From a virus (taxonomy: Duplodnaviria; Caudoviricetes), in IMG/VR virus record IMGVR_UViG_3300032312_002284, positions 22,156 through 86,155 of that record: 64,000 nt of DNA. The stretch is one strand, 5' to 3'. Below are positions 8,932-41,325 of the stretch, piece by piece; the first letter of the stretch is position 1, and each line of letters opens with the position of its first letter. A program made the position numbers and the translations under genes. The notes beneath the pieces were generated by a model. That model ran no database searches, was not told where the DNA came from, and was given only the letters and a program-made list of their open reading frames with translations.

Positions 8932-9822
8932 ATGAATATAATTTTACAAATTAATGGTGGGTTAGGTAAATGTATTGTAGCCACCGCAATAACAGAAATA
9001 ATTAAAAAAAAATATCCTAATTCTAAACTTATTGTTGTCTCAGGATATCCTGATGTTTTCTTAAATAATCCTTATGTTGACCGAGCGTTTAATTTTGGTG
9101 AACATTCTTATTTTTATTCTGATTATATTGAAGATAAAGAATTTAAACTTTTGGCTCATGACCCATATCTTGAGACTAACCATATTAATAAAACAGAACA
9201 TTTAATTGAAACTTGGTGTAAATTATTTGATTTGGAATATAATGGGGAACTACCAAACATATATCTAACTGAAAGAGAGATTAATTTCTTTTCAAGAAAA
9301 TATACAACTGATAAACCAATCATGGTTATTCAAACTAATGGAGGGGTTGAACAAAATTTAAAATATTCATGGGCTCGAGATATTCCGTCACATATCGTTG
9401 AAAATGTGATTGAAAAATTTAAATATGGTTATACTATTTTTCATTTAAAAAGAGAAGACCAAATGTCATTTTCTAATACAATCCCTGTAACTGATACTTT
9501 TAGGTCAATTGCCACTTTGATTGCTATAAGTGATAAAAGATTTTTCATGGATAGTTTTGGACAACATGTTGCAGGGGCTTTAAAGTTAGAATCAACAGTT
9601 TTGTGGGTTGTAAATTCACCAAAAGTTTTTGGATATGAGACAAATAAGAACATAACTTCTAAACCTTTCACAAAGAAAGCAGAATTAAAAATGTCGTATA
9701 TTAATAAATTTAATATACAAGGGGAACCTTTGGAATTCCCATACAATAGTGAATTTGAAATGTTCGATATTGATGACGTAATAAATTCTTTGAGTAATAA
9801 TGAATATACCAATACCAAATAA
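8932..9822 (+). CDS. Glycosyltransferase, GT9/RfaF (heptosyltransferase)-like
   Basis: Likely start MNIILQINGGLGKCIVAT...IKKKYPNSKLIVV...NPYVD. Later DSFGQHVAGALK resembles the GT9 DSGxxHxAxA motif. Confidence 0.7.
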   Translation: MNIILQINGGLGKCIVATAITEIIKKKYPNSKLIVVSGYPDVFLNNPYVDRAFNFGEHSYFYSDYIEDKEFKLLAHDPYLETNHINKTEHLIETWCKLFDLEYNGELPNIYLTEREINFFSRKYTTDKPIMVIQTNGGVEQNLKYSWARDIPSHIVENVIEKFKYGYTIFHLKREDQMSFSNTIPVTDTFRSIATLIAISDKRFFMDSFGQHVAGALKLESTVLWVVNSPKVFGYETNKNITSKPFTKKAELKMSYINKFNIQGEPLEFPYNSEFEMFDIDDVINSLSNNEYTNTK

Positions 9823-10186
9823 AATAGAAGTTAAATCATCCCCAATCCATGGGTTTGGTGTCTTTGCAACCGAAAAGATTTTAAAAAACGAGATAATTGA
9901 AACTTGTTATTCAATTTTCTTCAAAACCAATTTGGGTTATAATGATGATATATTATTAAAATATCGTTTCTCATATCCTTGTGGTTCGGCTCCAATAAAG
10001 TATGCAATACCCTTAGGATACGGATGTATCTATAATCATAGTGATGATAATAATGCGACATGGACGTGTGATTCAGACAATGGTATGTATTATTTCATTG
10101 CTGTAAGAGACATTGAACCAGGTGAAGAAATTTGTACATCATATGGAAAAAAAGAATATTGGGAATCAGTAAAAAAAATATATTAA
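9800..10186 (+). CDS. SET-domain protein (putative lysine methyltransferase)
   Basis: SSPIHGFGVFAT, YNHSDDNNA and AVRDIEPGEEICTSYG match the canonical SET motifs. Confidence 0.9.
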   Translation: MNIPIPNKIEVKSSPIHGFGVFATEKILKNEIIETCYSIFFKTNLGYNDDILLKYRFSYPCGSAPIKYAIPLGYGCIYNHSDDNNATWTCDSDNGMYYFIAVRDIEPGEEICTSYGKKEYWESVKKIY

Positions 10187-10188
10187 AA

Positions 10189-11013
10189 ATGGAAAAATTA
10201 TTTTTTCAGAGTTCACTACCACGAGCAGGTAGTACTCTACTACAAAACATTTTAGCTCAAAATCCTAACATATACGCAACACCGACAAGTGGTGTTTTAG
10301 AATTAGTGTACGCAGCTAGAGCAAACTATAGTAATTCACCTGAATTTAAAGCTCAGGACCCTGAACTTATGAAAAATGGATTTTTATCTTTTTGTAGAGA
10401 AGGATTGAAAGGTTTTTATGAAGGTGTAACTGATAAAAAGTATGTGATTGATAAAAGTAGAGGATGGGGAGTCCATTATGGATTTTTACAACAAATTGTT
10501 GATAAACCAAAAGTTGTTTGTATGGTGAGAGACCTTAGAGATATCTATACCTCTATGGAAAAAAACTTTAGAAAAAATCAACACAAAGATTTTGGGATTG
10601 TAAATCATTCTGATTTAACAGGTACATCAACACCTAAAAGAATAGATATTTGGGCAAATTCCCAACCAGTTGGAATGGCAATTGAAAGACTTCAAGAAAT
10701 TTTTAGACAGGGTATTAATGAAAATATTATGTTTGTTAAGTATGAAGATTTATGTTTGTATCCCGATTTAATCATGAGAAAAATTTATGAATATTTTGAA
10801 ATACCTTATTTTGAACATGATTTTGAAAACATTGAACAAATAACAAAAGAAGATGATGAAGTGTATGGTATTTTTGGAGACCATAAGATAAAAAAGACTT
10901 TGGAGTTGTTACCGTCAGATTCACAAAAAATTTTAGGGCCGGATGTGTGTGATTGGATTTATAATAATTATGGGTGGTATAATGAAATTTTTAAGTACCC
11001 TAAAAATATATGA
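10189..11013 (+). CDS. PAPS-dependent sulfotransferase
   Basis: Likely start MEKLFF. SLPRAGSTLLQNIL is the 5'-PSB loop, DKSRGW is present, VRDLRDIYTS is the 3'-PB motif, and VKYEDL follows. Confidence 0.85.
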   Translation: MEKLFFQSSLPRAGSTLLQNILAQNPNIYATPTSGVLELVYAARANYSNSPEFKAQDPELMKNGFLSFCREGLKGFYEGVTDKKYVIDKSRGWGVHYGFLQQIVDKPKVVCMVRDLRDIYTSMEKNFRKNQHKDFGIVNHSDLTGTSTPKRIDIWANSQPVGMAIERLQEIFRQGINENIMFVKYEDLCLYPDLIMRKIYEYFEIPYFEHDFENIEQITKEDDEVYGIFGDHKIKKTLELLPSDSQKILGPDVCDWIYNNYGWYNEIFKYPKNI

Positions 11014-11059
11014 TTAATTTATATATTAACAAAGTAATAGGAACGGTATTTATATTTGA

Positions 11060-13429
11060 ATGAGTTGCTATATAACAATATCAAATATAACTGGAGGACC
11101 TCCATATGAAATTACAGTTTGTGACAATTATGGGAATAATTGTTTTTTAGCAGCGTACGAAACATCATATGTTCCCCCAACAATTTATGTTAATATCCCA
11201 TCAGATTGGTCATTACTACCATTTGTTCAAGTGAGTGTCCAAAGTTCAGAAGGATGTGAACAATTACAATTTGTTCAAACAACCCCAACACCTACACCAT
11301 CCCCTACATCAACACCTGTTGTACCAACACCAACACCAAGTATTACTGCAACTATAACTCCAAGTATTACACCTTCAAAATCTATTCCGATACCACCTTA
11401 TTTTCAGGTTCAAAATATTAATGGTGCAAACCCTCAGTCAATAACTTTAAATGCTAAATTAAATAGTAAATTTATCGTAGATTTTGGAGATGGTTCGTCT
11501 CCAATAAATTATTCAATTACTAATCCTTCTTACACTGGCTCTACAAATTTAGTTGTTTTAAGTAAAAGTTATTTACCTTCAGATTATATTACAACAATAT
11601 ATGATTTAAGATATGGTTCACCTACTTTTCCAAATTCCGCTGACGGTTTAAGGGATATATATGTGGATAAAATATCTGAAATTTTTGTGAATGATTATAC
11701 CTTTACCGCGTTTACTAGTTTAGACGGAATATATATTACTAATTCTACTGTCGATACTTTTAAATTTGCATTGACAAATGCCTTTGATGTTTTTACTTAT
11801 CAATACAACTCGGCAACTACTTTTAATTTTGAAATATTAAATCCGACATCTATTACTCAGTTACAGAATGTTTTTTATCGTTATAATAATTTTACTTCGG
11901 CGACTATTAATTATTCGGGATATACTACAGCTTCACGACCTGCCAGAATAGATATTGTCGGGAATTTAAGTTTAACAAATCTTAACTTTGCTCCTCCCCA
12001 AACGGGTGGTGTTTTTTTTATATCTGAAAATGCTCAATTAAATGATATAAATTTTATAACACCATTAAGTTCGAGCACTACAGTTTCAAGAATTGACTTA
12101 CACGCGAATCGTTTTACAGGGTGGACAACAAATTTCCCAACACAAGTTTCCAGAATTGATATGGAACAACAACAGGGTGGACTTAGTTTAGGGGTTAATT
12201 CATTTAAATATTTCTCACCTAATTTGTCAAATAATACTGGTTTAACACAATTGAATTTATATACCAATAGTTTAACTAGTATTACTGAAACTATATCAGG
12301 TTGCACATCATTAACCGATTTAAGAGTTGATAGAAACCAATTAAAGACCCTACCACCTATACTTCCAAATTCTATCACTGACCTAACCGCTAATAGTAAT
12401 TATTTTACAGGGTATACTTCTAATTTCCCAACGTCCATGAATTACTTTAATATTAATAAAGGGACTGGGAACCCTTCATTACCTACTTGGAATGTTGAAA
12501 TTACGGGAGCAACAAATTTACAAACATTTTTGGCTAACTCTGTTGGACTAACTGCGTGGACTAAAAATTTCCCAACCTCAATTGTGACTATAGATTTTAG
12601 TGAAAATAGTCTCACCTCATTCCTTAATTCAATTTCAGGAAACACAAGTTTAGTTACACTATCTCTTAATAATAATAATTTAATTTCAATCCCCCCAATT
12701 TTTCCTAACTCCATTCAAACATTAAGATTACAAAATAATGATTTAACGGGTTATACTAGTAATGTTCCAACATCTTTAGTGACCTTCTCAATTGAAAATC
12801 AATTTGTGATTGGTAACTATATACCTGAATGGACTCAAGAATTGACAGGTTCCACAAATTTGAATTCTTTTGATATAAGTAGAGTTGGACTAACTGGATG
12901 GACTAAGACTTTCCCATCTTCAATACGAACAATCGATTTTAATGGTAATAATCTTACTAATATTAATTTTGGATTAATGACAGGGGCGACTAATATTGAT
13001 TTAGGTGGTAATTTGACTTTAAGTGCTGCGACTAATTTAAGTGCGGTTACAAATTTAGTAACTCTGTCCTTGGACTCAACTGACTTTAAAAATTCGTCAG
13101 ATATTATACAAGGAAATTTTCCTAAAACTCTGAAAAATTTTGATATCAGTATTTCTACTAATTTATCAGGATGGACTAATTCTTTTTCGGCTCTTACAGG
13201 TTTTACTTATGGGTATTTTTTTAGGACAAATTTAAAAACTGCTGCGGTAGATTTCTTGTTAGAAGATTTTTATAAATTAGCAACCGCTAATACATTAACA
13301 AATAAAACTTTATTATTTACTGGAACGTCAATCCCACAACCTGAATCCCCGACAGGAGGTTTATCTAACCCATATTATTTGGCTCTAAAAAGTTCCCCAT
13401 ACAATTGGACAGTAACTGTTAAACCATAA
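11060..13429 (+). CDS. Pro/Thr-linker, leucine-rich-repeat protein, probably virion-associated
   Basis: N-terminal Cys module, then PTPTPSPT linker, then LRR-like repeats (LTQLNLYTNSLT, LTDLRVDRNQLKTLPP, LVTLSLNNNNLISIPP). Confidence 0.65.
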   Translation: MSCYITISNITGGPPYEITVCDNYGNNCFLAAYETSYVPPTIYVNIPSDWSLLPFVQVSVQSSEGCEQLQFVQTTPTPTPSPTSTPVVPTPTPSITATITPSITPSKSIPIPPYFQVQNINGANPQSITLNAKLNSKFIVDFGDGSSPINYSITNPSYTGSTNLVVLSKSYLPSDYITTIYDLRYGSPTFPNSADGLRDIYVDKISEIFVNDYTFTAFTSLDGIYITNSTVDTFKFALTNAFDVFTYQYNSATTFNFEILNPTSITQLQNVFYRYNNFTSATINYSGYTTASRPARIDIVGNLSLTNLNFAPPQTGGVFFISENAQLNDINFITPLSSSTTVSRIDLHANRFTGWTTNFPTQVSRIDMEQQQGGLSLGVNSFKYFSPNLSNNTGLTQLNLYTNSLTSITETISGCTSLTDLRVDRNQLKTLPPILPNSITDLTANSNYFTGYTSNFPTSMNYFNINKGTGNPSLPTWNVEITGATNLQTFLANSVGLTAWTKNFPTSIVTIDFSENSLTSFLNSISGNTSLVTLSLNNNNLISIPPIFPNSIQTLRLQNNDLTGYTSNVPTSLVTFSIENQFVIGNYIPEWTQELTGSTNLNSFDISRVGLTGWTKTFPSSIRTIDFNGNNLTNINFGLMTGATNIDLGGNLTLSAATNLSAVTNLVTLSLDSTDFKNSSDIIQGNFPKTLKNFDISISTNLSGWTNSFSALTGFTYGYFFRTNLKTAAVDFLLEDFYKLATANTLTNKTLLFTGTSIPQPESPTGGLSNPYYLALKSSPYNWTVTVKP

Positions 13430-13476
13430 TGAATTTATTTTTCATAAAACTTAATTACAATTATTTATAATATAAA

Positions 13477-15576
13477 ATGATGTTTGTACCACCATATAAT
13501 TATTTAGTATCCAACTGTTGTGATGGTAATCAATATATCATCAATATGCCAAGTGGTGGACAACCCGGTGAAATGTGGTATATTGAATCGGTTGAGGGTG
13601 TTAATTTTTGTTTTATAATTGAAAATTTAATTGGACCATCCTCTTCAGGATATGATTATGGAGCAAATACTGCGAGTATAGTTTTAAATGCACCGGCAGT
13701 ATGTGGTTCCGCACCGGGTTTTTGTTGTGCGGCTTCAACACCTACACCTACACCAACCAAGACTAAAACACCAACCCCTACACCTACTAAGACTAAAACA
13801 CCAACTCCAACTAAAACTAAAACACCAACCCCGACTAAAACACCAACTCCAACAAAAAGCCCAGCGTTATCCCCAATGGCGACGTTGACTCCTACTCCTA
13901 CCCGAACTCCTACTTTAACTACTACTCCTACAGTTACTCCTTCATTGTCGGTATCAAGGACTCCGTATCCTGAAGTGACATATAGCTCAAGACCATCAGG
14001 TAGAAATGAGTGTGATGTAATTACAATTTACCCAATGGAGGTACAATGTCAGGTAGTTCAAGAACCTTCAGGTATCGGGTATAGTGATGGAATTGTTTCG
14101 TTATTGATTACTGGAGGAACTGCCCCATATACCATACAATGGTCTAATGGGCAAACATCTCAAACATTAAATGGTATATCTTTTGGTTCATATATTGCAA
14201 CTGTTACTGATTATTATAACGATTTTACAACAACAATTACTTGTGGATTTAATATACCAACACAAACCCCAACTTCATCTATTACTCCAACACCAAGTAT
14301 TACAAGTACGGTTACTGTAACCCCTACGAAAACGCCAACACCTGGTCTATCTCCAACAATGACTCCAACCAATACCCCGACACCTTCAGTTAGTCCAAGT
14401 TTTGGAGCTCCATTGACCCCAACACCTTCAATAACTCCATCGATAAGTTCGGGATTTGTTTCTGATTTGTGTATGTCATTTACGTATTGTAAACAATCTT
14501 ATACTATAACTTTTGTTCCAAATGGAACTTATAATTCGTATAATACTTGGATATCTCAAAATGGACAATATACAATAATATATAATGGAACTAATTGGTC
14601 GTTAACAGGATTACCTGTTTGTGGTAACTTAACACCATTAATCATTTCTAACGCTTCTCCATCATCTATCCCAACAACAGGATGGTCATTCTTGGGTGGA
14701 GGAAATAGTACTGGCGGAACTATAAGAGTTACTTTAGGTGATTGTGTTACTTCTCCATTATCTTTAAGTGTTAGTAAAACTGATTCTTGTACAAATAATG
14801 GTACAATATTAGCGACGGCTACAGGTGGATTGTCTCCGTATACGTATTCAATTAATAATATAACTTATCAAAATTCGCCATTATTTAATAATTTAGTTTC
14901 AGGAAATTACACATTATATGTTCAGGATAGTCTTGGTAACGTTGTGAATGTTGGAGTTACAATTTCACAATTATCTTCTCAGAATTATGTTGTGAATTTA
15001 TATGCGGATGGATTACCATTCGGTAATTATTTGTCAACTAATTGGTCAGCTCAACCTGGGTCTTTATTTACTACACCAATTACAAATGGTAGAAATGGTA
15101 TAATAACAATAAACCCGGCATTACCTAATGGTGTGTATATTGAGCTTGATATCGAGTATTCCGAAGCAATAACTCAAAGTCCGATATACCCAATTGAAAC
15201 ACACGTTACATGGGATACGACTGAAACAGTAGTTAATGGATTATTAACATTAGTACCAACTAATGGACCTACAACAAATAACATTGTAAATAACGGTTCG
15301 TGTGGGGGAGCATTTAGTGCGGTATCTACAGTGACAAATGTAAAGAATTACTCTTCAGTACAAATTTATAATACTACAAATATTGATTTATCATTATCTA
15401 TCACTAGTCAATTTATAAGTCAAAATGTTGGTTCGTTGATTTGTAAAGAAAAATTCTCATACCTATTAAAATACACCATTAGAAATGTTAAAATCTACGG
15501 AGCTAGTTGTGCTACAGTAACAATTGGTAATAATAACTTTGGTGCAACTGCCAATTACGGAGTTCAGTTTTTCTAA
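13477..15576 (+). CDS. Pro/Thr-repeat Cys-rich protein with SprB-like repeats
   Basis: TPTPTKTK repeats, and DG...ITGGTAPYTIQWSNGQT and ATGGLSPYTYSIN segments resembling SprB repeats. Confidence 0.6.
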   Translation: MMFVPPYNYLVSNCCDGNQYIINMPSGGQPGEMWYIESVEGVNFCFIIENLIGPSSSGYDYGANTASIVLNAPAVCGSAPGFCCAASTPTPTPTKTKTPTPTPTKTKTPTPTKTKTPTPTKTPTPTKSPALSPMATLTPTPTRTPTLTTTPTVTPSLSVSRTPYPEVTYSSRPSGRNECDVITIYPMEVQCQVVQEPSGIGYSDGIVSLLITGGTAPYTIQWSNGQTSQTLNGISFGSYIATVTDYYNDFTTTITCGFNIPTQTPTSSITPTPSITSTVTVTPTKTPTPGLSPTMTPTNTPTPSVSPSFGAPLTPTPSITPSISSGFVSDLCMSFTYCKQSYTITFVPNGTYNSYNTWISQNGQYTIIYNGTNWSLTGLPVCGNLTPLIISNASPSSIPTTGWSFLGGGNSTGGTIRVTLGDCVTSPLSLSVSKTDSCTNNGTILATATGGLSPYTYSINNITYQNSPLFNNLVSGNYTLYVQDSLGNVVNVGVTISQLSSQNYVVNLYADGLPFGNYLSTNWSAQPGSLFTTPITNGRNGIITINPALPNGVYIELDIEYSEAITQSPIYPIETHVTWDTTETVVNGLLTLVPTNGPTTNNIVNNGSCGGAFSAVSTVTNVKNYSSVQIYNTTNIDLSLSITSQFISQNVGSLICKEKFSYLLKYTIRNVKIYGASCATVTIGNNNFGATANYGVQFF

Positions 15577-15607
15577 CATAAAATTTAGATTTGAATAATT
15601 ATTATAT

Positions 15608-17791
15608 ATGGGTTATATATTACAAAACACATCAGGACTAATCTCAACTAGAATTACAGATGTTGGTAGAAGAAAGATTTCACAAGGAAATTTAAACATC
15701 CAATATTTCCAAATAGGTGATAGTGAAGTTTCTTACACTGGAGTTACTAACTCAGTATCAACAACTTCTAAAGTTTTGATGCCACCATATAACGCTCAAA
15801 ATAATACTGGATACCCACAATCTACAAAAAATTATATTAAGTATCCGTACTATATGCAAGGTACTTCGGGTAATACCTACGGTATACCTTACATGGAATC
15901 TGAATATGTTTCAATCTATAACTCCGCAGAACCAAGAGGATTTTTTTCTGGAGATTCAAGTTGTTGGTATGTACAACCTTGTTCGGCGTATACTATTAAC
16001 AGTACATTTGAAACTAATACTACATTACTTGACGGGGGAATATTAATATCTGGAGTTACAAATCCTTTAGCGTGTGATTCCACTGCAAACGGAACTATTG
16101 AAGTTGGTGATTTTGTTACAATTTTCTATAACCAATCAGACCTTTGTTCATGTTATCAATCTTGTTACCCAACTCTTACTTATAGAGTGACTTACTACGA
16201 TTCAGGTACTAATTTAATAGGTTTGGACAGACCATGTATTAATTTTACGACTTTATCAACCACTGCGAATTCAAGAATAATGGTGTATCCTTCAGGGATG
16301 ACTGAACTTTATGATACAATTACACCTGCAGGACATTGGAACGACGATGTTGTGAATTATGAATCTTTATGTTATACAGACCAAATTTCTTCACTTGTTT
16401 GGAACATGAATATAATATGGAGTCAGAGTATTGCAGGTCTTAATAACGCGGTTTATCAAGATTACAATTATTATACTTCAAAAGACTACATAGGTACAAA
16501 AGAATATTTAGGTTACATGAGTTCTTTAGGACAATCGGCAAGTACTGAAGTGTTCTATTTTAATTCATATGATGAACCGATTACGGTAACTCCTGAAGAA
16601 CAAAAATCAATTGCTGTAATACATTTTACAAATCAAGCGATAAATAATTTTTATGGTGAAAAATTTGCAGTTGAAGAGTATGACCCAAATAACCCTGGAG
16701 AATCAGGACAAGCTAGAAATTTTAAATTCCATGTCCCAACTTTAATGTGGCATAAAAGTGATAATTGTTGTTTAGGTGAAACTTTTTATATTGACCCACC
16801 TGTAAATGGGGGAGGATTTATGGAACAGGGATTACTTTACTCAAGTAAAAATTCAGATATGAATAATCCTGGTATTAGATACTACACTCTTTGGGACAAT
16901 TATTTAAATACTGGAGGTACACCAAGTAGAATTGGTAAAGTATTTCCTGATGACCAATTAGTTGTTATTGATGACGCTGAAATAATTTCGGCATTATCCT
17001 ATAAATCAAATAGGAATTGGACTTTACCCGCTCCAAAAGTAACATTAGTTGCTCCTAACATATGTAATGGAGATATTACAAGTACAGGTGTTCTAAGTGG
17101 GGACGGGGAAACCTTATGGGTTTCATATGGTTTTTATAATAACGGGACGTTTACAAATTCTTTACATTGTCAATACTATCAAAAAATACAAGGACCAGCT
17201 AGTGGATGTACTAACTACGCTATGGATGTTTCATTAATATTTAACAATGAATTTGGATGTATGAATGTTGATGGGGTTACAGGATTCGTTGCGGAAGAGT
17301 TTTACGTTATTGCTCAGAAAGTTACAACAGGACAACACCCAAATCCAAATCTTTGGAGAGAAATTGATTTTACTAACCAACTAAGTGGATATACAATCGG
17401 TGGATATATTAATCCACAAGGGTTATATCAAAGTACGTTTACAATAACGTCTGATTTATATGATAATGCATCAATTCATAATATGGGTACTGTTTTATAT
17501 ATACCAACATTAGGTAGTAGTGGAGGTTTAAATTTTGGTGATGAATATTATTTTTACGGTAATATTGAAACTGATATACAAGCGACCATCTATGAAATGA
17601 AGTATAGGATTAATTTACCTTCAGGAATGTTTGTAAATAGTAGTAATCCATCTTGGAATAATTCATTAACTCCACATTTTAATGAAATCGGTCTTTACGA
17701 TTCTGATAATGACCTTATTTTTATATCAAAAATGCAAAGACCTACTCAAAGAAGTGGTATACAGCAGATAATGATTAAATACGATTTTTAA
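15608..17791 (+). CDS. Putative baseplate/tail structural protein
   Basis: N-terminal TRITDVGRRKISQG...FQIGDSEV and C-terminal FNEIGLYDSDNDLIFISK resemble tail/baseplate proteins of large phages. Confidence 0.45.
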   Translation: MGYILQNTSGLISTRITDVGRRKISQGNLNIQYFQIGDSEVSYTGVTNSVSTTSKVLMPPYNAQNNTGYPQSTKNYIKYPYYMQGTSGNTYGIPYMESEYVSIYNSAEPRGFFSGDSSCWYVQPCSAYTINSTFETNTTLLDGGILISGVTNPLACDSTANGTIEVGDFVTIFYNQSDLCSCYQSCYPTLTYRVTYYDSGTNLIGLDRPCINFTTLSTTANSRIMVYPSGMTELYDTITPAGHWNDDVVNYESLCYTDQISSLVWNMNIIWSQSIAGLNNAVYQDYNYYTSKDYIGTKEYLGYMSSLGQSASTEVFYFNSYDEPITVTPEEQKSIAVIHFTNQAINNFYGEKFAVEEYDPNNPGESGQARNFKFHVPTLMWHKSDNCCLGETFYIDPPVNGGGFMEQGLLYSSKNSDMNNPGIRYYTLWDNYLNTGGTPSRIGKVFPDDQLVVIDDAEIISALSYKSNRNWTLPAPKVTLVAPNICNGDITSTGVLSGDGETLWVSYGFYNNGTFTNSLHCQYYQKIQGPASGCTNYAMDVSLIFNNEFGCMNVDGVTGFVAEEFYVIAQKVTTGQHPNPNLWREIDFTNQLSGYTIGGYINPQGLYQSTFTITSDLYDNASIHNMGTVLYIPTLGSSGGLNFGDEYYFYGNIETDIQATIYEMKYRINLPSGMFVNSSNPSWNNSLTPHFNEIGLYDSDNDLIFISKMQRPTQRSGIQQIMIKYDF

Positions 17792-18384: not shown

Positions 18385-18403
18385 AAAAAAACTAATAAAA
18401 TTT

Positions 18404-18429
18404 AAGGGTCCTAATTGGACCCTTTTTTT
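18404..18429 (+). terminator. Intrinsic terminator between convergent operons
   Basis: AAGGGTCC-TAATT-GGACCCTT hairpin followed by a T-tract. Confidence 0.85.
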
Positions 18430-18464
18430 ATTTAATGTGTTGTGTAAACTACGATTTATTATGT

Positions 18465-27139: not shown

Positions 27140-27155
27140 TTTAGAAAGAGTAAAG

Positions 27156-29483: not shown

Positions 29484-29486
29484 TTC

Positions 29487-29519: not shown

Positions 29520-29532
29520 TAGAAATAAAATT

Positions 29533-30054: not shown

Positions 30055-30061
30055 ATTAAAT

Positions 30062-30862: not shown

Positions 30863-30911
30863 TGAAGTATTTATTGTTTATTATTTATATTTAAATTTAA
30901 AAAAAAAAGTT

Positions 30912-33231: not shown

Positions 33232-33237
33232 CTAATT

Positions 33238-33483
33238 ATGGCTCTATCTCAAAGTGAAAAAAAAGAAATTGAAACTCTTGTAAAAAAAGAGATTAAAGAC
33301 TTTTTAAATTCAAACACTCTTAGGCAGTTTGAAGATAAAATGTTAGATATGGTCGCTAAAGATTTAAAAAGAGGAAAACTAGAATCTGAGACCAAAGAAA
33401 TTGTAATAAAAATGTTCAAAGAGTTTTACCAATTGATGTGGACACAAAGGTCAATGTGGGAACCAAGATTAAGAAGTGCTTAA
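33238..33483 (+). CDS. Hypothetical protein
   Basis: 81-aa helical ORF. Confidence 0.55.
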   Translation: MALSQSEKKEIETLVKKEIKDFLNSNTLRQFEDKMLDMVAKDLKRGKLESETKEIVIKMFKEFYQLMWTQRSMWEPRLRSA

Positions 33484-33487
33484 AAAA

Positions 33488-34351: not shown

Positions 34352-34380
34352 AAAGACAATTATTGTTGTATTTATATAGT

Positions 34381-36000
34381 ATGAACAAAAAAACTATCAC
34401 AGATAAAATTTTGAATGAGTCAATTAATGACAAAATTAATGAATTGACATCAAGACTTGAGGAAAAAATTAATATTTTGGAAGTTGATGCATATGATTTA
34501 GAATATGAACAAACATATGATTTTGATAGTGTTAACGGAAAACCAAAAAGAGTAATTTTCAAAGGTAGGGGTAGAAAAGGTAGGAGTGATTCTGAAACTC
34601 AAACTTATCATTTTGAGGATGAAAAAGGTAATGATATAATGTTATCAAAAAAAGGAGTGTTGAATAAAATTAAAAATGTAGATAAAGAAATGAAAAAAGA
34701 AAATGAAGAGTTTACCGAGGGTAACGCTTTCACAAAAAAATTGAAAGATACCAAAAAAGGTGGTGAATTTAAAATTGGAAATAAAACTTATATTGACAAA
34801 TCAGAATTAGAAGAAAAACTATATGGTGGTCAAAAAAAGTTAGATAAAAATAATAACAATAAGATTGATTCTGAAGATTTTAAAATGTTAAGAAAACATA
34901 ATAAATCTGAAATTGAAGAGTTGGGTGGTATGGATGACGTACACCCAAGATTTGGAAAGAGAAATTTTGGAAAAATGAGTTATGATGAGATAATGGGTCT
35001 TTTAACTCAAAAATTGGAAGATGATGAAGATGAAAGTGGGACCAAAAACTATGATACAAATCGTTTGGAAGAGGCTAAAAAATTTATTCAGAAAGCAGTA
35101 AATAAAATGGAGAAGAAAGGTACCTCAGGTAAGTTTGCTTCTTGGTGTAAGAAGAATGACTTAGCATCTGAGGATGGTGAAGTTACTCAAAAATGTATAA
35201 ATAAGGCAATGAAATCGGATGATTCCAAAGTTGTTAAAATGGCAAACTTTGCTAAAAATATTGGAGGGTTTAAAGGCGCAAAACATGAGTCAATTATGTA
35301 TAAATTAGCATTGACTGAAAACACAACAATGGATTTAACTGAAGATGAGTTGATTGATATGATTGAGGAATTAGTTATCGAAGCTAAGGAAAATGAAAAG
35401 TATTCAGGAAAGGCCAAAGGTATGGTTGAATATGAAAGAGTCTTTAAGTTGAATAAAAAAGAAAACTCAGACGCTATGAAGGCGGTTGAGAAAAAAATGA
35501 AAGATTATCTAAAAGACGGTTCAAAGGGGGATTATTCAATGAATCCTAAACATTTCCCAAAAGGTAATGGTGAGTTGAGTAAAATGGATAAAAAGGCTTA
35601 TACCCCAAGTAAAGATGTTGAAGATTACGTTGATGATTATGCGTACCCTGGAATGACAAATTTAAACTATGATGAAATCAAACCTAATGATGAATGGGTT
35701 GAGGCCAACATTAAAGGAAGTGCTAAAACAGGTAACTCTGATGAATATGCAAATGCTGTTAAGACAGAAGTTGGTGAAAAGATGGTTAAAAATTATAAGA
35801 AAAATGCGTGGGGTAAACAACAAAAAAATGCGTCTTATAAGAGACAATCACAACCTGTGGATTATGCCGGTGAGAACACACCTAAAAAAACTTCATTAGA
35901 TAAGTTGAGTGAAAACTTTGAAGTTGAAAGTAATAAATTAATTATTGAAGAATTTGAAAAAATTCAACATTTGATGAGTTACAACAAAAAGACTCAATAA
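34381..36000 (+). CDS. Highly charged protein with an EF-hand-like motif, probable prohead core/internal protein
   Basis: LDKNNNNKIDSEDFKMLR and many (I/L)xE sites. TATTTATA lies immediately upstream of the likely start MNKK. Confidence 0.45.
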   Translation: MNKKTITDKILNESINDKINELTSRLEEKINILEVDAYDLEYEQTYDFDSVNGKPKRVIFKGRGRKGRSDSETQTYHFEDEKGNDIMLSKKGVLNKIKNVDKEMKKENEEFTEGNAFTKKLKDTKKGGEFKIGNKTYIDKSELEEKLYGGQKKLDKNNNNKIDSEDFKMLRKHNKSEIEELGGMDDVHPRFGKRNFGKMSYDEIMGLLTQKLEDDEDESGTKNYDTNRLEEAKKFIQKAVNKMEKKGTSGKFASWCKKNDLASEDGEVTQKCINKAMKSDDSKVVKMANFAKNIGGFKGAKHESIMYKLALTENTTMDLTEDELIDMIEELVIEAKENEKYSGKAKGMVEYERVFKLNKKENSDAMKAVEKKMKDYLKDGSKGDYSMNPKHFPKGNGELSKMDKKAYTPSKDVEDYVDDYAYPGMTNLNYDEIKPNDEWVEANIKGSAKTGNSDEYANAVKTEVGEKMVKNYKKNAWGKQQKNASYKRQSQPVDYAGENTPKKTSLDKLSENFEVESNKLIIEEFEKIQHLMSYNKKTQ

Positions 36001-36045
36001 TATACACGATTTATTAAATCTTATTATATTCTCCATAGTATCCCT

Positions 36046-36525
36046 ATGGAGAATTTTTTTAACTACATATCAAAACCAGTTACTGAAGACGAGTTTAGTC
36101 TTTGGTATGAATCTAATAATATAATTTTTGAAAGGCTCGAAGTCTATCAGGATTTTGTTGTTTCATTAGTCCTTATGATTATGGATACGTACTTAGGGGA
36201 CGATGGGGACGAAAACACGGAAACTAAAATTAGATTAACTAAAGATGAAAAAGACGACCATTTTGAATGGTGTTGGAATAAAGTGGTTAATAACTTCTCA
36301 AAGGAGAATATTCTAATAGAACAAGATGGGGAACATAAGACATTTCTTAAAGACTTCATATTTGAAATTTATTATGAGCAAAAAAATAAGTACATCAAAG
36401 ATTCAATGATTAAATTTTTTCAAGATGTATTTAAACTTGGAACGGTAATAACTAAATCTGACTTGGATTTAATAACAACAATTTATAAAACATTTAATCG
36501 AAGTACTAAATTTAGATTTACATAA
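36046..36525 (+). CDS. Hypothetical protein
   Basis: 159-aa ORF. Confidence 0.55.
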   Translation: MENFFNYISKPVTEDEFSLWYESNNIIFERLEVYQDFVVSLVLMIMDTYLGDDGDENTETKIRLTKDEKDDHFEWCWNKVVNNFSKENILIEQDGEHKTFLKDFIFEIYYEQKNKYIKDSMIKFFQDVFKLGTVITKSDLDLITTIYKTFNRSTKFRFT

Positions 36526-36561
36526 ATAAAAAAAATAGTATTTTTTTAAAAAAATAAACTT

Positions 36562-36741
36562 ATGGAAACAACTATTGAAAAAATCAAAGCTTTAACAGAG
36601 TCTCTTTCAGGTGATGTCACTAAATTCAATAACGGGAATAACAGTGCTGGGACTAGAGCTAGAAAAACATCACAAGAATTAAAATCATTATTACAAACTT
36701 TAAGAGGTGAAATTCTTGAAAAAAGAAAAGAAGAAAAATAA
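36562..36741 (+). CDS. Histone H1-like nucleoid protein (Hc1 family, Bacteroidota-type); not in the supplied ORF track
   Basis: Translated by hand: METTIEKIKALTESLSGDVTKFNNGNNSAGTRARKTSQELKSLLQTLRGEILEKRKEEK. GNxxAGTRARK is the family signature. Confidence 0.8.
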   Translation: METTIEKIKALTESLSGDVTKFNNGNNSAGTRARKTSQELKSLLQTLRGEILEKRKEEK

Positions 36742-36743
36742 TA

Positions 36744-36926
36744 ATGGATTTTAGTATTTTGTATAAGTTCTTTTGGGTATTTTCACTCTTGTATAGTGGA
36801 ACGTTTTTGATTAGATTTATATTCTCAATTTTTAAAACTGTTCCTGAAAAAATACAAGTGAGTTATTGGGAAAGAATTTTTCTGTACATTAATATTTCTT
36901 ACTTTATAACTTATTTAATAAAATGA
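36744..36926 (+). CDS. Small membrane protein
   Basis: Two hydrophobic segments. Confidence 0.5.
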   Translation: MDFSILYKFFWVFSLLYSGTFLIRFIFSIFKTVPEKIQVSYWERIFLYINISYFITYLIK

Positions 36927-37366
36927 AAATGTTTGATTACCTAAAAAAAATTGGCCCTTATTTCTTTCAGTTAAGAAAACTTGAAGACTATTTGGTCTTT
37001 GATGTTTTATTTCCTAGTACTTGGAAATTACCCAAAAGATTTGTACAAGAAGATAAATTTTTAAATAATGGTGAAACCGAAGATGGTAATTTATCATTAT
37101 CCTTCATTAGTGATTTTACTGAAGAAGGGGTTGATTTGATATACCAAAATATAATCGGTATCATTAACTTCAATCTTGAAAGAGAGGAAAAAGAAAGATT
37201 ACTTGATGAAAAAATTGGTGAGTTAAAAAAATTATTTGATTCACAAAAATTAGAAAACTTAAAAGAATTAAAGTTTGATATTAATCAATTAAAAGATGCG
37301 GTAAATGAAAAGACAAAATCTGGAAACAGAGTTAAACCTACTTCAGAAATCACAACAGAAGAATGA
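36923..37366 (+). CDS. Hypothetical protein
   Basis: 147-aa ORF, translationally coupled. Confidence 0.55.
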   Translation: MKMFDYLKKIGPYFFQLRKLEDYLVFDVLFPSTWKLPKRFVQEDKFLNNGETEDGNLSLSFISDFTEEGVDLIYQNIIGIINFNLEREEKERLLDEKIGELKKLFDSQKLENLKELKFDINQLKDAVNEKTKSGNRVKPTSEITTEE

Positions 37367-37490
37367 GTTGGAAATTGAGGACTATAAAAATAGTCTAATC
37401 AATGAAATAAAATCTTTTAAAAAAGAAGATTTAGTTAAATCAAAAAAACTTACACTATGGCAGAGAATCAAGATAATATTGGGTTTGTAG
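37305..37490 (+). CDS. Small hypothetical protein
   Basis: Ends KKLTLWQRIKIILGL. Confidence 0.45.
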   Translation: MKRQNLETELNLLQKSQQKNELEIEDYKNSLINEIKSFKKEDLVKSKKLTLWQRIKIILGL

Positions 37491-37678
37491 AAAAATTGGC
37501 TCTTATTGCTGATGCTTGTGAAAGTTTAATACCCGTACAAACCAATATATTATTTGAGTTAAATGATGAGAATTATAAGAAGGTATGTGAACAAGTTGGG
37601 TTTAGTAAAGAAAACTCTGAATTAAAAGTTGATATTGGAATGACATCATTTATTTTTATTCGCGAGGGTGAGTTGTAG
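37457..37678 (+). CDS. Small hypothetical protein
   Basis: 73-aa ORF. Confidence 0.5.
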   Translation: MAENQDNIGFVEKLALIADACESLIPVQTNILFELNDENYKKVCEQVGFSKENSELKVDIGMTSFIFIREGEL

Positions 37679-38285
37679 TTTTACGGTATAACATCTTTTT
37701 GTTAAAACCATAGTCCTCTAATAACTTATAAAGGTACTTTCTTTGTTCAATTGAAAAATCAACAGAAATCAAATACGGTTTCTGTTTTTCGTTTGACAGT
37801 ATATCAATTATCCTTTCACTATCTTCTTCGTTTTTTAATGAAAACAATTCAATTAAATCATTATTTTGAGTAATAATTTTATTATTCAACTTTGAAATTA
37901 AAGTTAGTTCTTTTTTATTAATGATTGAATTATAAAATTCGTCATAAGATATTTTTTTATTTTTTTTAATATCAAATAAAAAATCTTCACTTAGATAGTC
38001 ATTTAATTTTATAATTTCAAAACCTGAAGATGTTATAGATACATTTCTACCAAATTTATCGGTAAAGAAAAATTTACTATTTGAATTTAATTCTTCAAAA
38101 ATTAAACCAATCATATAAGAACACCGTTTACCATTCTCAAACTCTTTATTAAATTTAACAAGTGAGTTTTTATTTAATAAATCATTATAGTAAGATAGTG
38201 CTCGTTGTTTTGTTACAAAACTTTTGACAACTTTCTTTTTTTTATTATTTTTAAAAACGACTACTTTGAATTTTTGTTGATTCAT
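37656..38285 (-). CDS. Basic hypothetical protein
   Basis: 209-aa ORF, divergent from dnaJ. Confidence 0.55.
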   Translation of the reverse strand: MNQQKFKVVVFKNNKKKKVVKSFVTKQRALSYYNDLLNKNSLVKFNKEFENGKRCSYMIGLIFEELNSNSKFFFTDKFGRNVSITSSGFEIIKLNDYLSEDFLFDIKKNKKISYDEFYNSIINKKELTLISKLNNKIITQNNDLIELFSLKNEEDSERIIDILSNEKQKPYLISVDFSIEQRKYLYKLLEDYGFNKKMLYRKTTTHPRE

Positions 38286-38325
38286 ATGTAAAAAATAAAT
38301 ATTAATTTAAAATTTTGAATATAAT

Positions 38326-39252
38326 ATGGAGAATTATTATAGTGCTTTAGGGGTGTCAGAAAATGCGACACAGGAAGAAATAAAAAAAGCGTACAAAAAA
38401 CTTGCTGTACAACATCATCCTGATAAAGGAGGTAATGAGGAAACGTTTAAAAAAATTTCAGAAGCGTACGACACTTTAGGAAACCCGGAAAAAAAACAAC
38501 AATATGATTTACAGAAAAATAATCAATTTGGTGGTGGAGATGGGTTTGACCCATTTAGTATGTTCTCAAACATGTTTAATAACATGGGAGGTGGACAAAG
38601 AAAGAATCCAGATAAAGTTGTTAATTTAAAAGTTGGTGTTTTTGAGGCTTATAGAGGGGGAAGAAAATCTGTATCATACATGAGAAATGACAAGTGTGAT
38701 GTTTGTTATGGTACAGGTGGAGATAAAGAGACTTGTAAACCATGTCAAGGACATGGGTACTTCACTCAGAGAGTAGGGAATGGATTTTTTCAAACAATTC
38801 AAAGAAGTACATGCCAGGCTTGTAATGGGAAAGGGTTTAGATATACTAAAGCGTGTTATTCATGTAATGGTAGTACAAACATGGTAAAAATGCAAAACAT
38901 CGATATTGAATTACCTAGAGGTGTTGATGATGGTACATTCTTCAAATCACATGGAGGTGGAGATTATTTAAATGGTTCTTATGGTGATTTATTATTTAAA
39001 GTTGAAGTTGTTTCTGAAAATAATTTTGATAAAGTAGGTGCTGATTTAGTATATAATTATGACTTTACTGTTGATAGTCTTAATGATGAAAAAATAAATA
39101 TACCTCATCCTGACGGGAGTTTACAAATTGATTTCCCAAATGACTTGGAAACAAAAAAACCTTTACGTGTTAAAGGTAAAGGTTTTTACAGAGACGGAAG
39201 TGATTTGTACGTAAAATTTAATTTCAAACACAAGAAGTTAAAAGAATGTTAA
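38326..39252 (+). CDS. dnaJ: DnaJ chaperone
   Basis: J-domain with HPD, a G/F-rich region, four CxxCxGxG repeats and the C-terminal domain. Confidence 0.95.
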
Positions 39253-39381
39253 AATCCACTTTGTACATTCAATACAACCCCATATAAACATGGTTAAACT
39301 GAATAGTTGAAACATTAATAACCATGGTTTAAAATCATTGATTTTTGCACATGCCTTACATTTTGGTGTATTTTCTATCAT
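39238..39381 (-). CDS. 47-aa membrane micropeptide (not in the track)
   Basis: [47 protein letters not shown]. Confidence 0.4.
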
Positions 39382-39440
39382 AATTTAATATTTTATTTGT
39401 TATTTTAAATAATAATGATATTTATTTATAAATAAATACA

Positions 39441-39608
39441 ATGGCATCAATAAGCGCAAATACTGAATATTTAATTTGTATCGAGTGTTCTGGTACGACT
39501 GTCTCAACAAGAACAACACCACATCCAACCTATTCTGATTTAACAGGGGGAACTGTGACACAATTAAATGCGGTGTTGATTGGTGGAAGAAACGGACTTA
39601 ATTCTTAG
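39441..39608 (+). CDS. 55-aa hypothetical protein (not in the track)
   Basis: MASISANTEYLICIECSG...GGRNGLNS, preceded by TATTTATA. Confidence 0.5.
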   Translation: MASISANTEYLICIECSGTTVSTRTTPHPTYSDLTGGTVTQLNAVLIGGRNGLNS

Positions 39609-39993
39609 ATTCTGGAACTACAAGATACATCCAAGCGTAATCGTTATATTCTATTATTATAAATAACACTCCTGTAATTTCAGAAGGTCCCATATAGAAG
39701 TTACAACTATTCCCATTAGAATCTTGCATTCGGTATTGAGCAACATTATTTTGTTCTGCAAGTTTACCAACAACATAATAATCTTGTTGAGATTTACTGA
39801 AAATAGTAACTTTGGAATCCGTAAGTTTAATTAGAATGTCACAATCATTTATTGTTCCGTTCCATACAATTTCATTTGTACTAAAGTCACGGTAACCAAT
39901 ATTAAATGTTCGGGCTCTCGCGTACTCAATGTCTTGAGAAAAAGAAATGATTGATGTGAATAAGAAAAGAATTGATAAGATAAAGTTTTTCAT
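39598..39993 (-). CDS. Putative secreted protein
   Basis: N-terminal signal-like sequence MKNFILSILFLFTSIISFSQ. A -33/-7 promoter lies at 40010-40040 on the minus strand. Confidence 0.6.
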   Translation of the reverse strand: MKNFILSILFLFTSIISFSQDIEYARARTFNIGYRDFSTNEIVWNGTINDCDILIKLTDSKVTIFSKSQQDYYVVGKLAEQNNVAQYRMQDSNGNSCNFYMGPSEITGVLFIIIEYNDYAWMYLVVPESKN

Positions 39994-40061
39994 TTGTTTT
40001 TATTTTCTACAAATGTAAGAATAATATTTTGATTACCAAAGATAAATAAATCTAATGTTGG

Positions 40062-40505
40062 TTATTTACGTTTAATTTTAACGTATCTGTACCACAATCT
40101 TTCATGAAGAAAATAAATTACAGGTTTAAGAAGTAACTCACCAATACCTAATAAAGAAGACATTTCTAATGATACTCCACAGGAAAGTGCAACCAATACT
40201 GTAGTTAAGGTACCAAGTAATCTATAAGAAATAGTTTTTAAAATATGACGAAGAATAACAGTTTCTTCCTTTACTGTTTTAACATAAGCAATGTTATCGA
40301 CCACATTACAATGACCTTCACAACTGATGTGCCATTTATAATCATTTAATTCAGGCATCCAATCCTTTGTTGTGAAAGTATGACCATCAATGATAATGTC
40401 AGAAACTAATATTTCATTACCATCTTCAATTAATCTCCATCTATCATTTTCAGATGTTGATACGGTATTAAATCTGATTTGAAATTTTTTGATTTTGTTT
40501 TTCAT
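40062..40505 (-). CDS. Protein with a C-terminal DUF2061-like membrane domain
   Basis: RHILKTISYRLLGTLTT...YFLHERLW. Confidence 0.7.
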   Translation of the reverse strand: MKNKIKKFQIRFNTVSTSENDRWRLIEDGNEILVSDIIIDGHTFTTKDWMPELNDYKWHISCEGHCNVVDNIAYVKTVKEETVILRHILKTISYRLLGTLTTVLVALSCGVSLEMSSLLGIGELLLKPVIYFLHERLWYRYVKIKRK

Positions 40506-40900
40506 AGTTTTCCTTGAGCTCTTAATTCTTCTCTTATCTTTGTTGCTGAAATATCGTGTATTTCTTGTGGTGGAATTCTTTCAATGATATTATAACCAAC
40601 ACCTCGTCCAAATTCAATAGAACAAATATCAGGAATAACCATAACTTTTATCTTGTTACCCATATCAGAATAATGTTCTTCAATATTTTTTTTAACTTCT
40701 TCGGCACTATATGGATTTTTTTCATCAGGTTGAATATCTCTGATACAAATTAAAACGTTTTTACCTTCATCTAAAGCCTGTTGAAATAAAGATTGATGAC
40801 CTTTATGTAAAGGTTGCCATCTACCAACAAACATTGCATATTGACCATCTTTTGCAGGTAGTGATGATTCTACGTGAATTTTTTTATCCCAAGTACTCAT
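40502..40900 (-). CDS. HIGH-motif nucleotidyltransferase (candidate minimal ATP sulfurylase)
   Basis: FVGRWQPLHKGH, FGRGVGY and ISATKIRE. Likely start MSTWDKK overlaps the cysC stop codon (ATGA). Confidence 0.75.
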   Translation of the reverse strand: MSTWDKKIHVESSLPAKDGQYAMFVGRWQPLHKGHQSLFQQALDEGKNVLICIRDIQPDEKNPYSAEEVKKNIEEHYSDMGNKIKVMVIPDICSIEFGRGVGYNIIERIPPQEIHDISATKIREELRAQGKL

Positions 40901-41325
40901 TTTTTGTTGAAAGGTATTAAATGAAGACATTCATCTATTGTTTTATTTGTGGTATCAATATCTATAAAGTTTTCAGTAGGTTGTTCATACTCTTTAACAA
41001 AGTTTTGTTCTCTACCTCTAATTTCACTTGTATGAACATAGATTTCAACAACCTTATTTGTTTTCTTTAATGAGTCCCTCATTTCTTTGTAAGGAGCCAC
41101 AACAGAAATTACAACTGTAAATCCCTTGTGGTCTAAAAAACGAGCCAAATCAACAACAGATTGGATATTCTTAATTCTACCTTCAGGTGAATAATCAAAG
41201 TTTTGAAATAACTCCCTCAAACCATCTCCATCAACATTAATACAATTATCTGAACACTTTTCAATTAATGCATTTGCCAATGTTGTTTTTCCAGCACCTG
41301 GCTGACCTGTAAACCAATAAATCAT
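40897..41325 (-). CDS. cysC: Adenylylsulfate (APS) kinase
   Basis: IYWFTGQPGAGKTTLA, DGDGLR, RIKNIQ, VVISVVAPY..MR and YEQP. Confidence 0.85.
   Translation of the reverse strand: MIYWFTGQPGAGKTTLANALIEKCSDNCINVDGDGLRELFQNFDYSPEGRIKNIQSVVDLARFLDHKGFTVVISVVAPYKEMRDSLKKTNKVVEIYVHTSEIRGREQNFVKEYEQPTENFIDIDTTNKTIDECLHLIPFNKK

Follow-up and report, generated by a model that had tools for sequence, protein, structure and literature searches.

A split phage gene set for putative PAPS supply and sulfotransfer that includes a 132-residue candidate ATP sulfurylase

Here we describe two gene cassettes in a 64,000-nucleotide stretch of DNA from an uncultured water phage (the window; bases 22156-86155 of the 86-kb IMG/VR phage contig IMGVR_UViG_3300032312_002284) whose products probably enable the phage to make its own 3′-phosphoadenosine 5′-phosphosulfate (PAPS) and to use it with a sulfotransferase (ST) and a sugar-transferase-like protein. 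Cassette A encodes a GT9-fold protein (GT), a SET-domain protein and the ST; cassette B encodes a short kinase resembling those that act on adenosine 5′-phosphosulfate (APS), a 132-amino-acid (aa) HxGH nucleotidyltransferase (NT) and a DUF2061 membrane protein. In all likelihood the two cassettes are one functional system. On the basis of gene fusion, gene order and complementary distribution we read the NT as a putative minimal ATP sulfurylase with a probability of about 0.65. All six genes had been claimed in an earlier note on this DNA, and all are present as open reading frames (ORFs):

8932..9822, plus strand: GT9-fold protein (GT), 296 aa, soluble; the steady partner of the ST
9800..10186, plus strand: SET-domain protein-lysine methyltransferase-like gene, 128 aa; PF00856, E = 1.2e-14, 55.1 bits (cut-off 22.4)
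10189..11013, plus strand: predicted PAPS-type sulfotransferase (ST), 274 aa, soluble; true start at 10189
40897..41325, minus strand: short APS-kinase-like protein, 142 aa; PF01583, E = 5e-19, 69.3 bits (cut-off 21.1)
40502..40900, minus strand: mini HxGH/ISxTxxR nucleotidyltransferase (NT), candidate ATP sulfurylase, 132 aa; PF01467, E = 2.4e-7
40062..40505, minus strand: DUF2061 membrane protein, 147 aa; PF09834, E = 3.2e-12, 47.1 bits (cut-off 23.1), residues 88-138

The contig has a GC content of about 31% and a CheckV completeness of 29%; with near-complete relatives of 294-385 kb, it represents only part of a very large phage genome. We gathered 160 viral loci with the ST and the kinase as queries (120 after removal of duplicates), mapped the six genes of both cassettes in all 160, and took 80 cellular loci from one scan of bacterial and archaeal genomes. 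Four larger relatives were available, three of them 95-100% complete (G001-G003, 294-385 kb, among which G002 has 385 kb at 95% and G003 is complete with 322 kb) and one 76% complete (G004). DNA-level searches with both cassettes against isolated phages found nothing. A literature search, whose coverage left out most subscription journals, returned no small NT described as a sulfurylase and no phage sulfation operon.

From gene content, motifs, folds, the operon structure of the relatives and the lack of reductive genes we infer the enzymatic activities and the acceptor as follows. The NT would adenylylate sulfate (ATP + sulfate → APS + pyrophosphate, PPi), and the kinase, from the overlapping gene, would phosphorylate the 3′-OH of APS to give PAPS, thereby pulling the unfavourable first step forward. 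The soluble ST would consume PAPS beside its GT9-fold partner, joined in this clade alone by a SET methyltransferase, with the DUF2061 protein as a presumptive small membrane accessory of the PAPS half. The acceptor would be made late, together with the fibre genes; it would be a glycan of the host envelope or else the fibre proteins with Thr/Pro linkers.

Pairing of the nucleotidyltransferase with APS kinase

The kinase and NT genes of the window overlap by ATGA; a frameshifted kinase-NT fusion was considered here and rejected on account of this clean overlap. The gap between the two genes is 50 nucleotides (nt) or less in 78 of 88 viral loci, 34 of 49 longer NT homologues are fusions with an APS kinase domain, and PHROG 10255 is itself an APS kinase-NT fusion. 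In cells, an APS kinase, short or canonical, stands upstream of the NT in 68 of the 80 bacterial and archaeal loci, which come from Marinimicrobia, Flavobacteriales, other Bacteroidota, Verrucomicrobiota, Patescibacteria, marine group II/III archaea and others. The NT family as a whole is sizeable: among 1.84 billion representatives, 956 clusters match at E = 1e-10 or better.

The surroundings of the cellular pairs are those of polysaccharide sulfation. Marine Flavobacteriales display the order CysC-NT, CysQ-like Inositol_P phosphatase, Wzx-type flippase and two to three sulfotransferases, and the kinase-NT pair of Marinimicrobia lies within capsule loci (Wzz, Wzi, Poly_export, GT4, sugar-modifying enzymes) that also contain a Sulfotransfer_5 gene. 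These loci hold all the parts of the PAPS cycle bar a recognised ATP sulfurylase. Furthermore, neither the ATP sulfurylase Sat nor PAPS_reduct (CysD/CysH) was found in 17 of 20 NT-bearing genomes.

We sampled 101 genomes of the order around one NT-bearing bacterium. APS kinase is present in 74 of them and Sat in 64, where it mostly adjoins or is fused to CysC. The NT occurs in 5 of the 11 genomes that have the kinase and lack Sat and in none of the 63 that have both (raw Fisher test, ~3e-5, worked by hand), and it adjoins CysC, the position held by Sat elsewhere. A phylum-wide sample, which was too broad, has the NT in 3 of 121 genomes.

Two further arrangements of the pair were observed. Casjensviridae isolates that infect Xylella, Xanthomonas and Stenotrophomonas, among them Xylella phage Salvo (L179, NC_042345.1, 15167-15913), encode a 248-aa kinase-NT fusion annotated as ‘kinase’. 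Its neighbours include a MazG-like pyrophosphatase and a ‘cysteine dioxygenase’ but no ST; being culturable, these phages would be usable for enzyme tests. The 115-aa ORF L041:8136-8483 fuses the P-loop N-terminus of the kinase straight to the C-terminal half of the NT and looks like a deletion remnant of the pair, which suggests decay of the PAPS half in some lineages with a retained GT-GT25-ST set.

A shortened APS kinase

The best PDB match of the kinase is the adenylyl-sulfate kinase 7yq0 (E = 6e-19), and its invariant residues (G7, G12, K13, D32, D34, R37, R50, N53, P78, R83) align both with 7yq0 and with the canonical CysC of the 385-kb relative G002. The P-loop, the DGD motif, R37, YS..R50..N53 and P78 are common to the phage kinase and this CysC, that is, the APS-site motifs are in place. 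In G002, the canonical CysC (220 bits) occupies the kinase slot, before an equivalent small NT and DUF2061 gene, in a cassette that converges on a GT-ST pair; canonical CysC also takes this slot in many cellular loci. The exchange of the two forms in the same slot of G002 supports an APS-kinase function of the short one. The kinase very probably makes PAPS, for which canonical CysC in this slot of G002 and of cellular loci is indirect support.

Two features stand against this assignment: the score on TIGR00455, 77.9 bits, is below the cut-off of 138.7, and the protein is without 14 residues of the lid (the KGLYKKAR..FTGI segment) relative to canonical CysC and thus has no full lid. The match spans only profile positions 4-111 of 152. 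What the earlier note labels ‘cysC’ is, more exactly, a shortened protein of APS-kinase type. A CoA-type pair (phosphopantetheine adenylyltransferase, PPAT, plus dephospho-CoA kinase, DPCK) or a NadR-like pair was ruled out, the kinase matching APS kinase and not the CoaE or NadR families.

In one clade (L092:10001-10759, also L093-L096) the short kinase is extended at its C-terminus by about 110 aa that include a DxDGT motif (‘FCDIDGTIF...ILTTARPE’). By its sequence the extension has the look of an HAD-type phosphatase, for which removal of PAP or PPi might be conceivable.

The sulfotransferase and its partners

The ST scores 65.5 bits on PF13469 (E = 1e-17, cut-off 27) and 46 bits on PF00685 (E = 5.6e-12). 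It carries PRAGST in the 5′-phosphosulfate-binding (5′-PSB) motif and VRDLRDIYTS in the 3′-phosphate-binding (3′-PB) motif, and P11, R12, G14 and S15 of the former and R114 and S122 of the latter are invariant among the 32 homologues aligned. Profile and motifs concur in predicting a PAPS-dependent sulfotransferase, the nearest solved structure of which is human TPST1 (E = 3e-4, over residues 4-218).

The GT is the immediate neighbour of the ST in many relatives (gap of 50 nt or less in 42 of 70 viral loci). The window protein has no match in Pfam (including PF01075) or NCBIfam, the G003 homologue reaches 20.4 bits on PF01075 against a cut-off of 22, and a profile built from 41 GT homologues matched no PDB sequence. 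The AlphaFold2 (AF2) model derived from these 41 homologues has a pLDDT of 92.6, and its best Foldseek matches in the PDB are all GT9 enzymes (3tov, E = 3.5e-14; WaaF 1psw, 1.6e-11; WaaC; TibC; TM 0.60-0.64), which makes it a GT-B fold nearest to GT9 structures. The designation ‘GT9-like’ thus holds for the fold and has no counterpart in a Pfam match of the window protein. A GGxGK motif is invariant across the 41 homologues, and its Lys, judged by motif position, would occupy the usual spot of the GT9 catalytic Asp in the N-terminal Gly-rich loop; we take this position to be equivalent to Asp13 of WaaC, the Gly-Asp general base of GT9. This residue speaks against a straightforward sugar-transferase role: the GT9-fold protein may be no conventional sugar transferase and may transfer no sugar whatever, which makes the ‘sulfated glycan’ of the earlier note a tentative product.

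The SET gene overlaps the end of the GT gene, and the ST start lies three bases past the SET stop. Its product carries YNHS and TSYG (the NHS and C-terminal Tyr motifs of the family) and is nearest, among solved structures, to PBCV-1 vSET (E = 9e-13). The gene is confined to the closest clade (9 of the 120 non-redundant viral loci).

Just upstream of the GT lies a small ORF of about 72-77 aa (window 8638-8871, plus strand), which is also found in L006 (94% identical) and, with the same length, in G002 (see also L176:4988-5221). In other relatives the slot upstream of the GT is taken by a longer ORF (family f9, about 109 aa).

Linkage of the two cassettes

The two cassettes lie 30 kb apart and on opposite strands of the window. 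Among the 120 non-redundant viral loci, 83 have an ST, and in 57 of these 83 the kinase lies no more than 3 kb away and in the same orientation, in 39 cases with a gap of 50 nt or less. The common layout is one operon, GT-(SET)-ST-kinase-NT-DUF2061, with the GT sometimes shifted to the end. A contiguous GT-SET-ST-kinase-NT-DUF2061 run is found in L005/L090, L007-L009 and L084, in which the kinase is 84-93% identical to that of the window. As the close relatives are contiguous, the arrangement of the window is a derived split. The cassettes could have been expected not to co-occur across relatives had the earlier proposal of a single system been wrong; they do co-occur, mostly as one same-strand operon.

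The nearest relative, 3300044844_001196 (L083), has a fuller second cassette, ST2-small ORF-kinase-NT-DUF2061-GT2, of which the window has lost ST2 and GT2. This loss, the SET insertion and the operon split with its duplicated upstream element are specific to the window. The element in question is a 44-nt sequence present in two copies:

8879..8922, plus strand: upstream element, copy A; 15-mer TTTTCTATTTACCAA, 12 nt, 17-mer ATTATTTTTTTAAAAAA; ends 9 nt before the GT ATG
41332..41375, minus strand: upstream element, copy B; same build; ends 6 nt before the kinase ATG

The exact 15-mer TTTTCTATTTACCAA occurs in the 86-kb contig only before the GT gene and before the kinase gene. A near-identical copy of the 44-nt element lies upstream of the L006 GT, and partial copies are found in L007 and L009; the strict pattern is found among relatives in L006 only and is not general. 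In the relatives, the kinase gene follows directly on the stop codon of the ST and is without the element; the split was therefore accompanied by duplication of the upstream element, which would keep both halves co-regulated. A scan for sigma-70 promoters found sites no more frequently than in shuffled sequence, and a terminator scan was uninformative in this AT-rich DNA. If its putative promoter role holds, the split operon with the duplicated element is a natural case of co-regulation kept through a rearrangement.

A looser third copy of the element, TTTACA-N16-TATTTTTTTAAAAAA, is present at window 36517-36553 (plus strand) before a 59-aa ORF (36562-36741). Its 17-mer portion could serve the phage more generally as a promoter or leader signal.

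Several counts weigh against the linkage. There are 31 non-redundant kinase-NT-DUF2061 loci with no ST within 10 kb, and a PF13469 gene is found anywhere in the contig in only 1 of 20 such cases, most of these contigs being fragments. Co-occurrence of separated cassettes at the contig level is weak in the other direction too, with the kinase in 3 of 13 contigs that have GT-ST only, because most contigs are 14-70% fragments.

In one ST-less clade (L102-L134 and L149-L154, e.g. L125:8398-12781) kinase-NT-DUF2061 has a different ‘decoration’ neighbourhood, with a NodU/CmcH-type carbamoyltransferase, several 2OG-Fe(II) oxygenases, DUF6734 proteins and a protein resembling Trp halogenases.

Candidate acceptors among virion and host structures

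Both cassettes lie beside fibre-type genes, as the earlier note had it and as PHROG and f4 family matches bear out:

4050..8648, plus strand: fibre-type structural protein, 1532 aa, directly upstream of cassette A; neighbour family f4
11060..15576, plus strand: two virion-type proteins with Thr/Pro(/Lys) repeat linkers (11060-13429, 13477-15576), directly downstream of the ST; candidate acceptors
41405..46922, minus strand: three Gly-rich fibre-type genes, a small gene (44248-44679) and an f4-type fibre gene, upstream of cassette B

The linker proteins contain TPTPTPTKTK-type stretches with 20-24 Thr and Pro per 30 residues and have PHROG matches to virion structural protein. The genes at 41405..46922 have PHROG matches to tail-fibre and minor-tail proteins, a Gly content of 28-34% and the f4 match at 44778-46223. 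Cassette A does not follow the plus-strand fibre operon, as had been proposed, but lies inside a structural operon, the Pro/Thr-linker proteins continuing on the same strand. In 77 related loci f4 fibre proteins flank the cassette, and a tail sheath gene is nearby in others.

These surroundings make a virion protein one possible acceptor, at somewhat less than even odds. A host surface glycan is another, with odds about as high: the PAPS chemistry would be the same, and the acceptor would be the host cell surface (lipopolysaccharide (LPS) core, O-antigen or capsule precursors), where an altered receptor blocks superinfection or aids release. This would suit (i) the GT9 enzymes, which are typically LPS-core heptosyltransferases, (ii) the GT25 ‘LPS biosynthesis’ gene between GT and ST in some relatives, (iii) the cellular kinase-NT pairs, which serve capsule and exopolysaccharide (EPS) loci, and (iv) the membrane character of the DUF2061 protein. 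It is less easily squared with the position of the cassette within fibre or tail-sheath modules in most lineages, including the 77 loci with f4 flanks, with the Thr/Pro-linker virion proteins directly after the ST, or with the nearest solved structures, which include the protein modifiers TPST1 (E = 3e-4), TibC and vSET. Moreover, some relatives have in addition a polypeptide-type GlcNAc transferase of PF11397, a family that we take to include polypeptide O-GlcNAc transferases. None of these points against a host-surface acceptor is decisive.

Family resemblance and function of the nucleotidyltransferase

The conserved motifs of the NT are GRWQPxHxGH, IPDI, GRGVGY and ISATKIR (GRWQPLHKGH and ISATKIR in the window copy). 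They include the HxGH and ISxTxxR combination of NadM and the archaeal nicotinamide mononucleotide (NMN) adenylyltransferases (NMNATs), motifs that are generic to the superfamily. The AF2 model (pLDDT 89.7) is a single domain, with NMNAT (Z 9.4) and PPAT (Z 8.7) as its nearest structural neighbours, followed by the Thermus ATP sulfurylase 1v47 (Z 7.5 over 113 residues); the other ATP sulfurylases 1x6v, 2gks and 1j70 have Z of about 6, below NMNAT and PPAT. The NT falls outside the NMNAT profiles (29 bits on TIGR01527, cut-off 181.2; 35.1 on NF002243, cut-off 127), and by sequence and fold it belongs to the HIGH superfamily, in a cut-down form. With NMNAT and PPAT nearest in fold and Sat lower, the substrate is not assigned by the fold; it is the context that assigns it.

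A number of observations weigh against the NT as an ATP sulfurylase. Its nearest relatives by both sequence and fold are NadM/archaeal NMN adenylyltransferases (sequence matches at E = 1e-6 to 1e-10) and PPAT. On PF01747 it reaches 17.4 and 11.9 bits, under the cut-off of 24.3 and over the HxxH stretch only, which leaves it outside Sat; no sulfurylase-specific motif is present in it; and the single domain of 132 aa has neither the N-terminal PUA-like domain nor the ~380 aa of Sat. The complete relative G003 has the ST, kinase and GT and no NT, so the NT is dispensable in some phages, which must draw APS from the host. Distant kinase-NT fusions of Xylella and Stenotrophomonas phages lie amid DNA-metabolism genes, with no ST nearby. 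The absence counts in cells rest on metagenome-assembled and single-amplified genomes (MAGs and SAGs) whose completeness is not established, and the five NT genomes of the order sample (each ~1 Mb) probably represent one or two clades and, hence, one or two displacement events, not five. The idea that the NT supplies APS is backed by fusion, gene order and complementarity with Sat and is not backed by sequence or fold family membership.

These resemblances could also mean that only the kinase serves sulfation, using host APS, and that the NT makes some other product, for example NAD from NMN or, like HldC/HldE, an ADP-sugar for the GT. The proximity to NadM/archaeal NMNAT and PPAT would be explained directly, as would a weak PHROG match of the NT to heptose-1-phosphate adenylyltransferase, ADP-heptose being the established GT9 donor, and the set of ST, kinase and GT without NT in G003. 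However, the partner to which the NT is coupled or fused is APS kinase and not the GT: 31 kinase-NT-DUF2061 loci have no GT and 20 GT-ST loci have no NT, which speaks against an ADP-sugar donor made by the NT for use by the GT. The NT is also kept beside CysC in cellular loci with sulfotransferases and a CysQ-like gene and no GT9, and Sat and CysD are lacking in NT-bearing genomes. Furthermore, NMNATs exceed the NT by 30-40 residues, and only 75-80 of its residues are aligned by Foldseek; a protein so short would fit a very small substrate. We regard another product of the NT as unlikely.

Extending the ATP sulfurylase reading, the NT could represent a third, minimal, NMNAT-derived class of ATP sulfurylase in many marine bacteria, archaea and phages, here used to sulfate the phage’s own Thr/Pro-linker tail-fibre proteins into a mucin-like virion surface that possibly bears sugar and methyl groups as well; in this full form the proposal is doubtful.

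Sulfation and sulfur assimilation

No PAPS_reduct (cysH, cysD), NIR_SIR (cysI) or Inositol_P (cysQ) gene was found in the 86-kb contig or in G001-G004, and no Sat-type sulfurylase reaches the threshold in the contig, where the sole match is the NT itself (11.9 bits). The absence of cysH and cysI, noted earlier for the window, thus extends to the whole contig and to the three relatives of 294-385 kb that are 95-100% complete. That the contig holds only about 29% of the phage genome weighs against the sulfation reading; the lack of reductive genes argues against sulfur assimilation. Together with the operon linkage it supports the earlier preference for sulfation over assimilation as far as the functional link and the PAPS supply are concerned.

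That cassette B is an ordinary ‘cysC’ auxiliary metabolic set boosting assimilatory sulfate reduction (cysteine supply) of the host, unrelated to cassette A, agrees with virome surveys, which commonly count viral cysC among the sulfur auxiliary metabolic genes, and with the many kinase-NT-DUF2061 loci that have no ST nearby. It is highly improbable in the light of the missing cysH, cysD and cysI genes in the contig and three near-complete relatives, the 39 non-redundant loci in which the kinase abuts the ST, and the unique upstream element common to both cassettes. In cells, moreover, homologues of the pair are found in loci for polysaccharide sulfation, in genomes without PAPS reductase.

The DUF2061 protein

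The DUF2061 gene overlaps the NT gene by ATGA. In its product, about 85 aa form an N-terminal domain, which is followed by the DUF2061 region; the hydrophobic segments of this C-terminal region include a stretch at residues 95-121 of a kind found in none of the five enzymes. In most viral loci DUF2061 follows kinase-NT, in a form of either ~70 or ~147 aa, and the extra ~85-aa N-terminal domain is a separate gene in some of them. Homologues of near-equal length were found only as close phage copies. Most cellular kinase-NT loci have no DUF2061 gene, and the chemistry itself therefore does not need it; sulfate entry or membrane anchoring would be a guess at its role. Elsewhere, DUF2061 genes have been listed among iron-regulated genes, e.g. 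in Caulobacter.

Comparison with known systems

The proposed PAPS half parallels the known PAPS synthases (human PAPSS1, 1x6v; Aquifex aeolicus Sat-CysC, 2gks; CysDN/CysC) in that sulfate is adenylylated and then phosphorylated at the 3′-OH, the two enzymes tend to adjoin or fuse, the kinase half is homologous to the phage kinase, and the NT appears to share the HIGH-nucleotidyltransferase superfold with the Sat catalytic domain (Z 6-7.5). It differs in that NT family members have 115-160 aa against ~380 aa for Sat, have no PUA-like domain, fail PF01747 and are nearer to NMNATs than they are to Sat, and also in the shortened lid of the phage kinase and the DUF2061 membrane protein attached to the module. 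The counterpart of the Sat motif GRDHAG is GRGVGY in the NT.

With the NadM/archaeal NMNATs (1f9a, 1ej2, 2qjo, 2qjt), its best sequence and fold matches, the NT shares GRxQPxHxGH and ISxTxxR; unlike them, it is far under the family cut-offs, some 35 residues shorter, and found in the context of APS kinase and sulfotransferases, never of NAD genes. The GT has the GT-B fold in common with the GT9 heptosyltransferases (WaaC, WaaF, Veillonella 3tov) and the protein heptosyltransferase TibC (4rb4), and differs from them in having no Pfam GT9 match for the window protein, an invariant Lys for the Gly-Asp base (by motif judgement) and constant pairing with an ST.

The rhizobial nodP/nodQ/nodH genes likewise provide a dedicated PAPS supply beside the consuming sulfotransferase and apart from assimilation, and the Mesorhizobium nod loci, like the phage, hold a DUF2061 gene together with nodH, nodP and nodQ (bioRxiv 10.1101/2022.04.26.489235). 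NodPQ, in contrast, are CysDN/CysC homologues with no mini NT, the acceptor is a lipo-chitooligosaccharide, and the system is cellular rather than viral. Finally, the viral ‘cysC’ auxiliary genes of virome surveys share the Pfam call APS_kinase on a phage gene; the phage kinase described here differs by its place in a sulfation operon with its own candidate sulfurylase and no reductive genes, and the label ‘assimilatory sulfate reduction’ would be wrong for it.

Should the NT prove to be an ATP sulfurylase, it would be a third, unrecognised enzyme form of sulfate activation; to our knowledge, only two kinds of ATP sulfurylase are established. It would then explain the ‘orphan’ APS kinases of streamlined marine genomes and have viral ‘cysC’ in virome surveys read as sulfation, not assimilation. 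With 115-160 aa it would be the smallest sulfurylase, handy for enzymatic PAPS regeneration. That dozens of lineages keep a self-supplied sulfation cassette in their fibre and tail modules suggests virion or receptor structures that carry sulfate, of which we know no documented case in phages.

Just downstream of the DUF2061 gene lies a 131-aa ORF (window 39598-39993, minus strand) with an N-terminal signal peptide ending in ...SFSQ. Gln directly after the cleavage site is typical of exported Bacteroidota proteins. MAG bins with the entire five-gene cassette carry the names Sediminibacterium, Flavobacteriaceae and Ignavibacteria, and the signal peptide and bin names together hint at a Bacteroidota host.

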